From the NCBI GenBank assembly GCA_041690595.1, contig JAWLHB010000047.1, forward strand, positions 1 to 64,000: a stretch of DNA of 64,000 nucleotides, given 5' to 3'. Below, piece after piece: positions 9,332 through 64,000 of the stretch; position 1 is the first letter of the stretch, and every line of letters begins with the position of its first letter. The DNA is from Lentisphaeria bacterium (GTDB taxonomy: Bacteria; Verrucomicrobiota; Lentisphaeria; JABSQK01; JAWLHB01). Both the position numbers and the translations under genes were made by a program. The notes beneath the pieces were generated by a model. The model had not been told where the DNA came from, searched no databases, and saw only the letters and a program-made list of their open reading frames with translations.

Positions 9332-11083
9332 CTAGTCGGGCGACGGGATTTCCACTTCTGTCTGGCAGGCAGGGCATTCGATGTCGATGCCGACCCAATC
9401 CACCTCAGCCGTCAACTTCTGGCCACAGGAGGGGCACCTGAACTGGAACTCGCCAGCCTGGAGTGCGGAGGCCGTTGGCTCAGGCTCGGGGGTTGGCTCA
9501 GGCTCGGGAGTGGGCTCGGGAGTGGGCTCGGGCTCGGGAGTGGGCTCGGGCTCAGGCGTTGGCTCGGGCTCGGGTGTTGGCTCGGGCTCGGGTGTGGGCT
9601 CGGGCTCGGGTGCAGGCTCGGGCTCGGGCCGGGCGGGGGGTGGCGCGGCTGTGGGACGGGGGGCTTCGACCTCTGTAGGCGGCGGCAGAGAGCTGACAAA
9701 TGCGGCTTGCAGATCGACATCGAGTTGGGCGGAGCATGCTTCGGAGGCTGTTCGCGCCAAGCGGCCGAGATGGCTGCCGATGAGACGCACGGCAAGGCCA
9801 AGCGGCTTGATCACGCCATGGCCGATCGCCAGTATGGCGGCGCCGACCGCCTTGCCCGCGAGACTGCCGCCGATGCGCCTGCCATCGACCAGACCTTCCA
9901 CCACCTTGGGGGCTGCGTCTTCGCGGAGCAGCAGGCGGCAGTTGGTTTCCTGGCAAAGCGCAGCCAGCTCTTCGGCCTGAGCGGTATCGAGAGGTTGATC
10001 GTGCAGCCAGAGGAGATTGACCGTACGCCGCGCTCGGGCGCGCACCTGGCGATGGCGGTCGAGCCACGTCAGCAGACGGCGGATCATACGCTCTCCGCGG
10101 ATGCGATCCTGGATGGTCACAACGGCGTCGCCAAACCAAGCGGCATCCAGGAGCTGGTCGTCGGCGTAGCGCGTACCATCGGTGCATGACACGCCATGGC
10201 TCTGCCAGGGAAGGCGACCGGCTTCCGTCTCCGGCCAGATGTCGCGCGGGCCAAAAAGGATGAAGGACTCTCCCTTTCTGACGCATGTCATGAGAAAGCG
10301 CCGCATGTTGGCGGCGGTGGCATGGCGAATGGCCAGTGCATGCTGCTTGCGCGATACGGAGTCCACAAAAGCTCCGGCCACGGGCAGCGGGTAGACCCCT
10401 CCCCCGATCTCGTTGAAACGGAGGAGGTAGTCGATCACCACCAGCAGCAGGGCAAAGATGAGGACGATCCGTGCCATGCGGCGGTTGTAGGCGTCGTACC
10501 GATCCGCCTCGGCCAGTTGATCGGCCCGCATCCGGCGCACGCCGGATGCGGCTTCGGCTTCCTGCTTCGCCGCCTGTTCCTGACGGAGAATCTCGTTTAC
10601 CGATAGGCCGTCACGTTGCAGCGTCTTGCCGGCCGCGCGTTCACGCTTGCCGAGATTTCGGTAGCTGTACTGCTGGAATTTCTCGACCTCGCTCTTGAGA
10701 ATGGCCTCTTCGTACTGGTCTGCCGGTTCGGCGATGCCGGCATAGTCGTAACGGTCATCGGCGTCGTCTTCGGCAAAGCGGATATCGGCGGCTTGTCCGG
10801 CGAGCTTCTCTCGGGAAAGCTCCTGGCGCTCCATGATGCGCTCGCGCAACTGTTCGAATTCATAGGCGCGATCCACTTCGATGGCGCCTATGGCGATGGA
10901 ATTGGCCTTGGCCAGGCCGATGCCGACGAGAGCCAGCGCCAAGGCGAGCCAGAGTCCCCCGGTCCGCAAGCGTGCGGGCAGGGCAAGCGCGGCCAGCATG
11001 GCAACAAGCGCCCCACCCCATAACCAGATGGAGGTCATGCCGAGGGTGCCGAAATAGTCTTGCAGATGGCCAAAGTCGATCAT
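9332..11083 (-). CDS. Membrane protein with PEPEPT-repeat linker and C-terminal Zn ribbon
   Basis: About 3 TM segments, a charged soluble domain, 52-aa Pro/Glu/Thr repeat, then CPSC...CPAC; ATGA overlap with the upstream gene. Confidence 0.8.
9474..9628 (-). repeat. Coding tandem repeat, 18-bp unit encoding PEPEP(T/A): eight hexapeptides plus one PEPT
   Basis: Imperfect GGCTCGGGCTCGGGxGT units, mostly varying at synonymous positions. Confidence 0.9.
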
Positions 11084-12732
11084 TTGCGGTACTTGCGGGT
11101 TTCCTGGAGGTATTGCGTAAAGGCATAGTAGATGATGTTGACGCCGAGATCGAAGCTGACCTCCACGAGAGCCGGATCGGCGCCGGAATGACCCGTCTTC
11201 CAGGCATCACCGATATCGCCCGGGTGGTAGTAGACAATCCAGCGGCCGCGATGCTTCATCCCCATCGCCTTGTTGCCGCCATGATGCCACAACGGCGGGG
11301 CTCCGTTCGGCAACAGATACGGGAACTGGTAGAGCGGATCGTCATCGGAGACGGTGATCAAGGGCTTGTCGGGAAAGGTGGCGGCCATGAAGGCGCGAAA
11401 GCTGCGATCCCACTGGGGGCTGCCGGCATCGGCAAAGAGCATGCCGCCATCGAGCAGGTAATCACGCAGTATGCGACTGTCGGCCGCACTGATCGCGATG
11501 TTGCCCGATCCCGTCATGTAGACGAAGGGGGGGGCATAGCCCTTGGAATAATCCTTCAGTTGGCGCACGGCGTTGCTTTCGGGCTGCTTCGCTACCTTGA
11601 AGCCGGTGCGGCGGTGGAAAGCCTCCAGGAAGTTGAGATCGGCCCGCTGTTTAGCATCCATGCCGTCATCCCAGTCAGGGCCGCGATACTCCAAGCGGAT
11701 AAAGCGAACGACGGCCCCGTCCATTCCGTCCGGCCAGCCTGGCCCCTGCCCCGGTTGATTTCCGGCGCCGTGGACGGCATTCGGATCGGCAACGTGACGC
11801 AGTTGGGTCGCCAACTCCACCTGTTGTTCGACCTCCGACTGATCGAGGTCGGGCACCTGATAGATGATGGCGGAGTTTGGATTGAGGATGAACTTCTGCT
11901 TTTTCTTCTTGGGCGGTTTGACGATTTGCACCAGCGTGATGGCGGGGTTGCCGGAGCCCTTGGGTACCGTATAGTCTTCGACGCAGCCACGCATGCGCAG
12001 GAGCCATGGGATGATGACGATGATCAGGAGGTGACCGGCGAGAGATCCGTACATGCTGCGGCGGTAGAGCGGATCGCGGCCATCACTACGGATGCTTTCG
12101 AAGAGCTGGTCACCCAGCGCGGGATCCGGTGTCGTCTCGCCGCAGTACACGTTGATCACCCGCCGCCGCCAGGCGATCAGGTGCATGACGGCAAGGAAGA
12201 GGAAGAGGAGCCCCAGCGGCATCATCAACCACCAGCCCCAGTGAAAGGCAATGACATTATCGACGGGCTGTCCCAGCACCGTGAGCTGCTGGTCGGCGAA
12301 GAGTGAAAGCATCCGGTAGATGGCAAAAGCGGTGACCCCAAGCACGGCATAGCCGAGGATGTAGCATTTGCGCAGGAAGGAGAGCGTGCTGGGCTGGAGG
12401 CGTCGTCCAATCACCATGCCAATGAGGATGACCAGTAGCGAAACGGCGCAGATGGCGATGCAGCCGATCAGGAGAATGGGCATCCCCTCCTGGATCAGGA
12501 TCTGTCTGACGATTTCGTCGTCGTACCAGATCGGCTCGTAGAGCCGCCCAAGATAGAGGCCGTACTGCACGAAGGCGAGGACAAAGATCCCCAGCGAGAA
12601 GCTCAGGAGGGAGGGCAGAGGCTGGAGACCGGCCCGGGAGCCGATCCGGCCCAGCGTTCGAGCCGTTCGCCGGATCCGGAGGACGCCGGCAGCAGTGAAT
12701 TGTGCGGGGGAGCTGGTCACATTACCACTCAA
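11080..12732 (-). CDS. Multi-TM protein with C-terminal DUF4159-like domain
   Basis: About 5 TM segments, the last with SLAGH; C-terminal PFVYMTG...[14 protein letters not shown]...DDPLY pattern recognised as DUF4159. Confidence 0.8.
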
Positions 12733-62068: not shown

Positions 62069-62347
62069 ATGAGCGATAGCGGTCATGTCACGGTAGAAAT
62101 ATGGGATGCCGGGGGAGTCGCGATGACCACCGCCACGTTGCCGACAGATGTCAAGGTCGGCGAGCTGATCTCCGTGCTGGTGGCACGACTCAATATGCCC
62201 AAGACCGGAGCCGATGGTCAGATTATCAGCTATAAACTCAATCACCAGAACAAGACACGACAGCTGCTCTCTGGCGAGACGCTGGCACAGGCCGGCGTTC
62301 CGGATGGCAGCATCCTCCGCCTGCTGAGAGAAATCATGGCCGGATGA
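62069..62347 (+). CDS. Ubiquitin-like beta-grasp protein (EsaB/YukD-like) with C-terminal Gly
   Basis: 92 aa; ETLAQAGVPDGSILRL matches the ubiquitin-fold TLxxxGIxxGxxLxL pattern; ends EIMAG. Confidence 0.8.
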   Translation: MSDSGHVTVEIWDAGGVAMTTATLPTDVKVGELISVLVARLNMPKTGADGQIISYKLNHQNKTRQLLSGETLAQAGVPDGSILRLLREIMAG

Positions 62348-62409
62348 AGCACGAGCTCTGCAATAAGTAGCTGTACGACGAGACGACGTTTACAGAAAAG
62401 GTTTACCAA

Positions 62410-63471
62410 GTGCCCGAAGAATTGATCATCGATTCGAATGATCTCGCATCCCCAGAGATCAAAGAGAGCGTAGCACAGGATCGATCGCTGGAAGATATGG
62501 CGCGGGCTTCCCGCTCCATTATCCGTACCCCACTCCTCCGCAGCCCATACTTCTATTACACCTTTGCCGGCCTTGTCGGCTCCGTCCTCGCATGGTCCGC
62601 CGTCTACCTCCTGCTTCTGCCCCTGCCGCTGGATTTGCCGCCCCAACTGGAGAGGGCACTCAGCTATATCTGCAGCGCCGGGTTAATTGGCATGACCATG
62701 GGCATGTCCCATGGGCTGATCTATCGCAATCTGCGTACAGCGGTGCATTGCGGCGCGGTCGGGCTCCTGGTGGCCGCCCTGCCGGCCTTCTTCATGGGGG
62801 GGATCGGCGAACTCTTTGCCACTCTGGTTGTCGACCTGCCAAATTACCTGCTGCAGCGAGGCAAATGGACAACGGATCGCGGCATCTTTCTCTTTCTGAT
62901 CATGGCGTCCGATGGCTTCACATGGGCGCTGATCGGTTTGCCCATGCTCATGGGAACAGGCATAGCGCTCCGTTCGAAGCCGTTGCTCTATTCAGCCGCT
63001 GCGTCGGGCATGCTTGGCGGCTTCATCGGCGGGGCAGCACGAGCACCGATCTTACGCTTTCTGCCGGAACTGATAGGCGGCAGCGAGGTGATCGCCGGCC
63101 TGATCTGGTTCAGCCTCATCGGCATCCTGGTAGGACTCCTCTATGCGATGATGGAGCATGGAGTCCGGGAAGCTTGGTTCATCCTGGCGAAGGGGCCGTT
63201 GCGCGGCAAGCGATTCGTCTTCTTCAAGACTCCCATTTCCGTCGGGTCAAGCTCCCGGTGCGACCTCTACCTCGCCGGCGATGCCGCCATTGCACCCGTT
63301 CACGCCAACCTCAGCCAGGAAGGAATCTTCTGGTTGCTGCGAGACGAGGGTGCCCCCAACGGCACCTTTGTCAACGGCCATCGCATTCAACAATGCCTCC
63401 TCAACCACAATGATGTGGTGACCATGGGCGAGACGGTACTCAAGTTCAAACTGAACAAGCGGACGGGCTAG
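62410..63471 (+). CDS. Multi-TM membrane protein with C-terminal FHA domain
   Basis: About 6-8 Gly-rich TM segments, then ISVGSSSRCDLYL...HA...NGTFVNG...GET. Confidence 0.85.
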   Translation: MPEELIIDSNDLASPEIKESVAQDRSLEDMARASRSIIRTPLLRSPYFYYTFAGLVGSVLAWSAVYLLLLPLPLDLPPQLERALSYICSAGLIGMTMGMSHGLIYRNLRTAVHCGAVGLLVAALPAFFMGGIGELFATLVVDLPNYLLQRGKWTTDRGIFLFLIMASDGFTWALIGLPMLMGTGIALRSKPLLYSAAASGMLGGFIGGAARAPILRFLPELIGGSEVIAGLIWFSLIGILVGLLYAMMEHGVREAWFILAKGPLRGKRFVFFKTPISVGSSSRCDLYLAGDAAIAPVHANLSQEGIFWLLRDEGAPNGTFVNGHRIQQCLLNHNDVVTMGETVLKFKLNKRTG

Positions 63472-63474
63472 CCC

Positions 63475-64000
63475 ATGAGCGATGGAGTCGATGTCTATGC
63501 GGCAGGGACGCAGTTGGCCGGGGTCATGTGCTGGGTATGCCAGACACGCATCATGGCCGGCGACGAGATCGTCTTCTGTCCCCATGACCAGCTGCCGACC
63601 CACGCCGAATGCTGGGAGAACAACGAGGGCTGCCCGGTCTACGGCTGTGAAGCAGCCCCCGACCACGGCCACTTGGCCGTTCAGGCACTCGGTTCCCAGA
63701 CCGGTGCGGCCAACTACCAATGCCCCTCCTGCCGACGAATGGTCAAGCCCAACTTCCTCCAATGCAACTACTGCGGCGTCGACTTCTCATTGCAGAATGT
63801 CGTAAGCGGCCTCGAAAACGAAGATTACAAATACCGCGGTCAGCACGACCACCGCCAGCAGCGCGGCCTCTGGCTCCTCCTCCTCTGCACGATTACCGGC
63901 ATCCTCGCGCCCATCGCCCTCATACTCTGTGCTACCCTCATGATGAAAGGCTCCATGGGGCGGCTGCGCCTCAGTCACCTCTTTCGCGATTCACGCATGC
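63475..64000 (+). CDS. Prokaryotic RING-finger protein with Zn ribbon and TM segment (truncated by the window edge)
   Basis: Hand translation from ATG 63475, no stop before 64000: CWVC...DEIVFCPHD...HAECW...GCPVYGC, then CPSC...CNYC and a hydrophobic segment. Absent from the ORF track. Confidence 0.8.
   Translation, partial: MSDGVDVYAAGTQLAGVMCWVCQTRIMAGDEIVFCPHDQLPTHAECWENNEGCPVYGCEAAPDHGHLAVQALGSQTGAANYQCPSCRRMVKPNFLQCNYCGVDFSLQNVVSGLENEDYKYRGQHDHRQQRGLWLLLLCTITGILAPIALILCATLMMKGSMGRLRLSHLFRDSRM

Follow-up and report, generated by a model that had tools for sequence, protein, structure and literature searches.

A reduced Prok-RING_1-type ubiquitin-like gene cluster in a Lentisphaeria bacterium and the membrane-associated conjugation system predicted from it

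Gene content of the locus

At the end of a 64,000-nucleotide stretch of DNA from a Lentisphaeria bacterium (assembly GCA_041690595.1, contig JAWLHB010000047.1, here C47), genes for a ubiquitin-like protein (Ubl), a membrane protein with an FHA domain and a membrane protein with a RING finger lie in a row and are followed by the gene of a ubiquitin-conjugating-type enzyme (E2). This stretch, the window, comprises the first 64,000 bases of the 67,030-base contig, which extends 3 kb past it. The genome holds a reduced form of the bacterial operons that combine a Ubl with an activating enzyme (E1), an E2, a JAB peptidase and Prok-RING_1 proteins: no JAB gene was found in it, the cluster is protease-less with a single RING gene, and the E1 is detached and trimmed. 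The four genes of the cluster are packed on one strand with successive gaps of 62, 3 and 15 nucleotides (Table 1).

An initial annotation made from the letters of the window alone had described a 92-residue beta-grasp protein ending in EIMAG, a polytopic FHA protein and, three nucleotides after the stop of the latter, a protein with a RING-like finger, a zinc ribbon and a transmembrane (TM) segment. All three open reading frames (ORFs) are found at these places. Their family matches exceed the curated Pfam thresholds and are not due to chance. YukD, Prok-RING_1 and the E2 family UQ_con have one matching place each in the 8.1 Mb genome, which is this locus. As the annotation had also stated, none of E1, E2 and JAB is encoded within the window.

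Two sequencing runs, both belonging to one study, yielded short contigs that span the junction between the Ubl and FHA genes (locus coordinates L001 5269-5535 and 5164-5407), so that the two genes do not lie side by side merely through an error in the assembly of this genome. The FHA-RING and RING-E2 junctions are likewise spanned by pieces of contigs from public runs. A promoter and terminator scan of L001 4500-8400 gave 0 promoter-like sites and no terminator at the gene ends. The cluster ends after the E2, because the gene directly following it encodes a convergent T2SSE-type ATPase.

Table 1. Positions of the cluster genes and of the unlinked E1 candidate
Feature	Location	Strand	Description
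Ubl	C47 62069-62347	+	92 residues, YukD-like beta-grasp, end EIMAG-stop
Polytopic membrane FHA protein	C47 62410-63471	+	353 residues, FHA-fold domain at residues ~261-347
Membrane RING protein	C47 63475-64074 (window part 63475-64000)	+	199 residues, Prok-RING_1, second zinc ribbon, two C-terminal TM segments
E2	C47 64090-64992 (L001 7090-7992), outside the window	+	300 residues, UQ_con
E1 candidate	Contig C11 84592-85557, unlinked	-	ThiF-type

The Ubl and its C-terminus

The Ubl matched the Pfam family YukD (PF08817) with an E-value of 5.1e-11 and 43.6 bits (cut-off 27), and no match to ThiS or MoaD was obtained in Pfam at E <= 1. The 74-residue protein proposed by a gene caller starts too late; the 92-residue ORF aligns with its relatives from residue 7 and includes the first strand. 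A word-based homologue search with the Ubl returned the window's own protein only, as the 74-residue call. A profile search was used instead, and it gave 1188 matches at E <= 1e-3 over 1.84 billion cluster representatives. The Ubl shares 42-44% identity with those encoded in complete operons, which reach 64-65% among themselves.

The protein is already mature, as nothing is encoded past Gly92. All four aligned Ubls end in E-I-[T/M]-A-G and a stop codon, namely EITAG in three complete operons and EIMAG here. Among 120 domain ends of the family (those of the best 150 matches that reach the end of the profile), 119 read AG and one reads GG. As judged from this comparison, which bears on a refuting condition named in the initial annotation, the terminal Gly of the family is conserved and the terminal Ala-Gly near-invariant. 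Such a Gly is required in a conjugated tag and not in the YukD of type VII secretion, which is not known to be conjugated or to have a conserved terminal Gly.

Only 22 of the 120 domain matches stop exactly at this point; many of the tails beyond AG look like read-through, and some are real fusions. Fusions after AG or tandem poly-Ubls were seen in P0029, P0031, P0058, P0061, P0067, P0071, P0074, P0080 and P0127, in P0060, P0064, P0065, P0070 and P0073, and in P0095 and P0139, the fusion partners being zinc ribbons or TM/lipoprotein-like tails. Such fused and tandem proteins would need JAB-type processing. In P0116 and P0118, the conserved AG is followed by CF(L/P)..., resembling the start of a self-cleaving domain of the Hint/intein type, and P0116 carries tandem Ubl repeats. 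A tail of this kind could yield an activated Ubl C-terminus without an E1.

The membrane proteins with FHA and RING domains

Residues 261-347 of the FHA protein matched the Pfam families FHA (E 1.9e-12) and Yop-YscD_cpl (E 2e-14), and on the Kyte-Doolittle scale the protein has four or more hydrophobic segments. It is 42% identical to its counterpart on the related metagenome contig L117 and 24-29% identical to the FHA proteins in the operons of four relatives, three of them complete and one truncated by its contig. In canonical FHA domains that bind phosphothreonine, the Arg of the G-R motif, the Ser of S-x-x-H and an Asn contact the phosphate. In an alignment to GarA, a true phosphothreonine binder, the GR of GarA corresponds to GS, SRRH to APVH and SLNG to APNG. 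Across 83 distinct sequences of the family, the invariant Gly is followed by Ser in 78, by Ala in 4, by Lys in 1 and by Arg in none; the Ser position of S-x-x-H is mostly Glu (51), followed by Ala (14), Met (6) and Asp (5), and the His is kept in 83/83. The initial annotation had called this a signalling locus. Signalling by kinase read-out is unlikely because the FHA domain lacks the phosphothreonine-binding residues, and by its residues the domain is more likely a docking module.

The RING protein matched Prok-RING_1 (PF14446) with E 1.1e-9 and 38.6 bits for the part inside the window and with E 1.6e-9 and 38.0 bits for the full protein (cut-off 29.1). Its finger is followed by a second CxxC...CxxC ribbon and, towards the C-terminus, by hydrophobic/TM segments at residues 134-152 and 181-199. 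The pattern of the eight zinc ligands in five aligned RING proteins of canonical operons is C-x2-C...C-x2-C...H-x2-C...C-x4-C. The protein is predicted to be an adaptor resembling a ubiquitin ligase (E3-like) with its finger in the cytoplasm.

The E2

The E2 matched UQ_con in Pfam with an E-value of 1.7e-10, and its segment FHPNIVTDAIC contains the HPN motif as well as Cys98. H89, P90 and C98 are invariant in both E2 alignments, A2 with six and A3 with eight sequences. N91 is invariant in A3 only, because the distant row L023 in A2 has His at this position. The C-terminal 135 residues form a Cys-rich domain with 22 invariant Cys (A3). Four closer relatives of the same length and architecture, with 62, 58, 57 and 54% identity, keep all of the catalytic and Cys positions.

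A structure model of the E2 reached a mean predicted local distance difference test score (pLDDT) of 74.5. Eukaryotic E2s made up 45/45 of the top matches listed in a Foldseek search of the model against the PDB, each with a probability of 1.00. Residues 123-164 were modelled with a pLDDT below 50, so the assignment of the UBC fold is limited to the N-terminal core. One low-depth contig of sequencing run X1 carries a 1-nucleotide insertion in codon 2 of the E2 (C47 64095, L001 7095), which is most likely an assembly error, or else marks a strain with a shifted start.

Complete operons in relatives and retention of the reduced form

Relatives of the locus were sought with the E2, and the loci were typed by Pfam and by hidden Markov models (HMMs) built from the fetched loci. 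Matches were obtained in 6/401 sampled genomes of the phylum and in 6/351 of the class, this genome being counted in both. With one genome per species (185,579 species), 457 of 475 candidate stretches encode a relative. The best 80 belong mostly to Planctomycetota and also to Riflebacteria, Victivallales, Anaerolineales, Myxococcota, Holophagaceae and Bacillota. In metagenomes, scanning with the E2 protein alone detected no relative, and scanning with alignment A3 gave 80 loci.

The recurrent gene order was Ubl, ThiF-type E1, JAB, a small TM protein, membrane FHA protein, one or more Prok-RING_1 proteins, a trypsin-like protease and E2. This order was found by Pfam in three fetched loci and in a fourth one truncated by its contig; G408, a genome of the same taxonomic order, has a complete operon. 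Complete operons contain from one to several Prok-RING_1 genes (1-4 or more), the last of which is often fused to the trypsin-like protease. If only loci that reach 7 kb or further upstream of the E2 are counted, Ubl, E1 and JAB occur together in 45/54 from genomes and in 14/19 from metagenomes. The four proteins of the locus described here are 37-44% identical to those of complete operons, with the lower values given above for the FHA protein.

Two metagenome contigs resemble the reduced cluster more closely. On L116, with an E2 of 62% identity, the C-terminus of a RING protein directly precedes the E2, and no protease lies between them. L117 encodes an FHA protein, one RING protein (50% identity) and an E2 (54%), again with no protease, and no Ubl, E1 or JAB was found along its 5.7 kb. 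Before its FHA-RING-E2 genes lie a spacer of 240 bp, rich in AT, and a ZnuA-like gene in divergent orientation. Since L116 and L117 both show it, the protease-less form with a single RING gene is common to this sub-lineage. The convergent gene after the three genes on L117 (4025-5374, minus strand) reads, as judged by eye from its translation, like a receiver domain joined to a Ser/Thr protein kinase.

Other arrangements were met among the fetched loci. The E2 genes of L074, L078, L101 and L188 are orphans, with flanks of 8-10 kb on both sides in which the HMMs detected no other operon component. In L023 (genome G008, 9637-11143), Ubl, E2 and JAB genes are consecutive, the E2 is only 29-31% identical, and E1, FHA and RING genes were not detected nearby by the HMMs.

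Parts of the locus are covered at 85-100% identity by strain contigs from four public runs of three studies; these contigs are short and of low depth, with shares of 0.05-0.13, and possibly stem from several strains. Among 40 strain differences listed, 38 fall into the four genes, one into the upstream radical-SAM gene and one into the Ubl-FHA spacer. The Ubl has 10 synonymous and 3 conservative non-synonymous variants (D>N, V>I, K>R), the E2 has 8 and 5 and the FHA protein 3 and 2. With contigs of low depth and possibly of several strains, these counts point only weakly to purifying selection on Ubl and E2.

An unlinked E1 candidate

It had been anticipated from the window that E1, E2 and JAB would lie downstream or elsewhere. 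This held for the E2, which is the next gene, and for an E1 candidate, which is unlinked on contig C11; a JAB gene was not found in the genome. Four ThiF genes are present in the genome and only the one on C11 is of the operon type. It scored 255.3 bits on an HMM of operon E1s, compared with 99.5 bits for the MoeB-like paralogue, and is 41-43% identical to operon E1s. The GxGxxG, Asp and Cys motifs are kept. A crossover insert containing a Cys (SETDW..LN..RSC) is common to the C11 protein and the operon E1s, and the MoeB-like protein is without it. The C11 protein groups with 42 operon E1s in a quick tree, with a support of 97 in the Shimodaira-Hasegawa-like approximate likelihood ratio test (SH-aLRT), and scores too low for any of the NCBIfam equivalog models of ThiF, MoeB and TcdA. 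Among 40 related genomes, the operon E1 of G408 was the only match to it above 36% identity.

A model of two copies of the C11 E1 with the Ubl reached a score of 0.75, compared with 0.00 for the best control. The score mark applied was reached by 116/157 solved complexes and by 2/215 mismatched pairs. Three runs agreed in at least 91% of the contacts and the partner pLDDT was at least 86. Residues 89-92 of the Ubl touch the region of the nucleotide loop of the E1, at residues 21-24 and 133-141. Because MoeB-MoaD-like complexes have already been solved, the model may reflect only a likeness to these; it shows likeness and not binding.

The other three ThiF genes were rejected as operon E1s since they resemble housekeeping genes. 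The one on C36 is a MoeB-rhodanese gene adjoining a ThiO-like gene, the one on C7 is a short ThiF, and the one on C13 is TcdA-like with a spurious high-GC extension at its N-terminus. This extension is rich in Arg, Gly and Ala and probably untranslated. The C13 gene adjoins one for a 741-residue Ser/Thr kinase with a C-terminal PLDc_N membrane segment (C13 77909-81662, minus strand).

Discussion

Gene content and order, family memberships, the conservation of catalytic and terminal residues, the kinship to complete operons and the in-silico E1-Ubl docking model are what is shown for this locus. As judged from the sequences, it is fairly probable that the locus is a working, streamlined member of the bacterial Ubl-E1-E2-RING (Prok-RING_1) conjugation systems. 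The membrane-associated Ubl conjugation system with the RING protein as an E3-like factor, as it had been put forward in the initial annotation, is thereby supported by the E2, the C11 E1, the conserved Gly and the full operons of relatives. Its biochemistry is inferred at each step, as are membrane topology, substrates and biological role. Translation would yield a Ubl that is already mature and ends in Gly92. The ThiF-type E1 encoded apart on C11 would adenylate it, take it over as a thioester and hand it to Cys98 of the soluble E2. The RING protein in the inner membrane would then recruit the charged E2 and promote the transfer of the Ubl to lysine residues in proteins on the cytoplasmic side of the membrane, with the polytopic FHA protein as a putative docking or substrate-presenting partner and not a reader of phosphothreonine. 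Because the JAB peptidase and the operon protease were not found, tagging in this lineage would be neither reversed nor coupled to cleavage by a dedicated partner.

Several observations weigh against a working system, and a number of them concern the E1. No ThiF gene lies on C47, so that the E1 is not operon-encoded as in the complete operons. The C11 protein has a very long branch (5.0; median 0.24) in the quick tree, for which paralogues from this genome served as the only outgroups. Its start ATG overlaps the stop of an unrelated sugar-isomerase-like gene, and because of this start the protein lacks the N-terminal RFSR helix found in 6/6 aligned operon E1s. In MoeB and ThiF, the N-terminal helix of this type bears an arginine finger. 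A start further upstream was considered and rejected as less parsimonious, as only CTG codons are available there and this DNA belongs, in a different frame, to the 3' end of the gene before it. Near the C-terminus, a ribbon of ~35 residues with four Cys is missing, too. No JAB was detected in the genome with PF14464, with PF01398 at E <= 0.1, by tblastn with four operon JABs or by an HMM of operon JABs in six frames at E <= 0.01; with an assembly that is 97% complete in 99 contigs, this does not prove its absence. None of the 73 comparison loci that extend 7 kb or more upstream of the E2 has a Ubl without E1 and JAB, so the reduced arrangement has no exact counterpart. Finally, the fourth RING ligand is Asp here and in L117 instead of the Cys of the five canonical-operon proteins, and the strain variants of the RING gene are 1 synonymous and 6 non-synonymous.

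Much of this would also be seen in a decaying remnant, in which E1-JAB and protease have been deleted from a complete operon and the remaining genes are drifting and no longer form a working conjugation system. In addition to the JAB that was not found, no protease gene is present in the cluster, and the trypsin-like matches elsewhere in the genome are generic protease domains only. The E1 candidate is trimmed at both ends, the RING protein has exchanged a ligand Cys for Asp with 6/7 of its strain variants non-synonymous, and the four proteins are markedly diverged, with 37-44% identity to complete operons as against 64-65% among the Ubls of the latter. Decay is nevertheless unlikely in our view. 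The four ORFs of the cluster and the E1 gene are all intact and free of stops and frameshifts; the E2 retains its HPN motif and Cys, the Ubl its AG end and the E1 its GxGxxG, Asp and Cys motifs. The occurrence of protease-less FHA-RING-E2 genes at 54% E2 identity and of RING-E2 genes at 62% implies long retention, and synonymous differences are in excess among strains in the Ubl and the E2.

Still less probable is a repurposed module in which E2, RING and FHA protein form a membrane scaffold and the Ubl is a non-covalent adaptor, comparable to type VII YukD and orphan pseudo-E2s, with no E1 chemistry involved. Such a scaffold would fit the four loci that contain an E2 only, the FHA-RING-E2 genes without a Ubl on the 5.7 kb of L117, the FHA domain of a docking type that is no phosphothreonine reader and the E1 without its N-terminal helix. 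It does not account for the invariance of Cys98 and HPN in the sub-lineage, the exact AG C-terminus of the Ubl and the retention of an operon-type E1 with its crossover-loop Cys in the genome, none of which would be needed by a pure scaffold.

That the Ubl is a type VII YukD or a sulfur carrier of the ThiS/MoaD type lying by chance beside unrelated zinc-finger proteins is extremely improbable. In favour of it, the best Pfam match of the Ubl bears the name YukD, and a B12/radical-SAM gene lies on the same strand 46 nucleotides before the Ubl. Against it, this gene is not conserved in L117, the closest related contig. The neighbours within 5 kb are QueC and the radical-SAM gene upstream, then the FHA, RING and E2 genes and the T2SSE-type ATPase, and no FtsK/SpoIIIE ATPase, WXG100, ThiG, MoaE or sulfurtransferase gene is adjacent (a genome-wide type VII search was not made). 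Linkage to type VII or sulfur-carrier genes would have counted as a refutation in the initial annotation, and none of the refuting conditions that it named holds. The Ubl family adjoins E1, JAB and E2 in 45/54 and 14/19 loci, the Ubl ends in Ala-Gly and not in Gly-Gly, and the MoeB-rhodanese gene lies on another contig beside the ThiO-like gene.

Within the reading as a working conjugation system, it can be suggested tentatively, and with more doubt than the reading itself, that the locus is a stable, lineage-specific minimal Ubl ligation module composed of a membrane FHA protein, one RING protein, a Cys-tailed E2 and a free, trimmed E1 without arginine-finger helix or zinc ribbon, with no deconjugase. 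If this is true, tagging at the inner membrane would be irreversible and the set would be the smallest natural E1-E2-RING set in bacteria.

Prokaryotic Ubl/E1/E2/JAB/RING operons were reportedly predicted from genomes by Burroughs, Iyer and Aravind in Mol Biosyst in 2011. Two papers attribute the Prok-RING_1 type of operon to these authors (PMC4197634, PMC3417536), and the first, a review, describes such operons as uncharacterised and as sporadic in Actinobacteria, Planctomycetes and Acidobacteria, often missing in close relatives (PMC4197634). The initial annotation had stated that operons of this kind have been described computationally, including in Planctomycetes, and that few are characterised. 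No experiments in bacteria on the Prok-RING_1 type were found by full-text literature searches, which is no proof as most subscription journals lie outside their coverage.

The kind of operon is already known from comparative genomics. The locus shares with it a YukD-like Ubl ending in Gly, a UBC-type E2 with HPN and Cys, membrane Prok-RING_1 and FHA proteins and the sporadic distribution. New are the JAB that was not found, the cluster without a trypsin-like protease, the single RING gene instead of 1-4 or more, with Asp as its fourth ligand, and the trimmed E1 outside of the operon.

The nearest tested system is the cascade of Caldiarchaeum subterraneum, whose Ub-E1-E2-RING-Rpn11 operon Hennell James et al. 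(2017, PMC5654768) reconstituted in vitro. The likeness lies in a five-component, eukaryote-like cascade encoded as an operon, with a ThiF-type E1, a UBC E2, a small RING protein and JAB/Rpn11. The archaeal proteins are soluble and much closer to the eukaryotic ones, whereas the present locus has RING and FHA proteins bound to the membrane and a YukD-like Ubl that ends in AG, and it lacks a JAB.

The YukD/EccD domains of type VII secretion share Pfam family PF08817 and the beta-grasp fold with the Ubl; here, in contrast, AG-stop is near-invariant and the partners are E1, E2 and RING proteins. The defence-linked ubiquitination-like systems of bacteria, namely the cyclic oligonucleotide-based antiphage signalling systems (CBASS) with Cap2/Cap3 and the Bil and Bub systems, are not known to contain RING or FHA membrane proteins or E2s of the classical UQ_con type. 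The likeness lies in E1, E2, Ubl and peptidase, with which these systems carry out real conjugation of proteins (PMC11601603, PMC11601596). The Ubl, FHA, RING and E2 proteins gave 0 matches to the models of PADLOC 2.0.0, which include those of CBASS Cap2/3, Bil and 6A-MBL, at E <= 0.01, in a 2023 library from which newer systems are possibly absent. The C11 ThiF matched only the generic E1 half of E1-E2 fusion models in PADLOC 2.0.0.

Among bacterial systems, Prok-RING_1 operons come closest to the E1-E2-RING cascade of eukaryotes. A natural copy with a Ubl, an E2, one RING protein, one FHA protein, a separate E1 and no JAB found would be the simplest set to reconstitute. It would also be a natural test of the need for a deconjugase and protease, of the ability of a trimmed E1 to activate the tag and of the possible role of the FHA protein as a substrate-docking element. 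These operons have been proposed to act as addiction-like, selfish pairs of modifier and de-modifier (PMC3417536). This view would need revising if the system works without a JAB.

One further ORF was noted downstream of the cluster. It encodes 134 residues rich in F, I and Y with multiple TM segments (C47 66324-66728, plus strand; L001 9324-9728), has no Pfam match and sits in an apparently AT-richer stretch close to the end of the contig.

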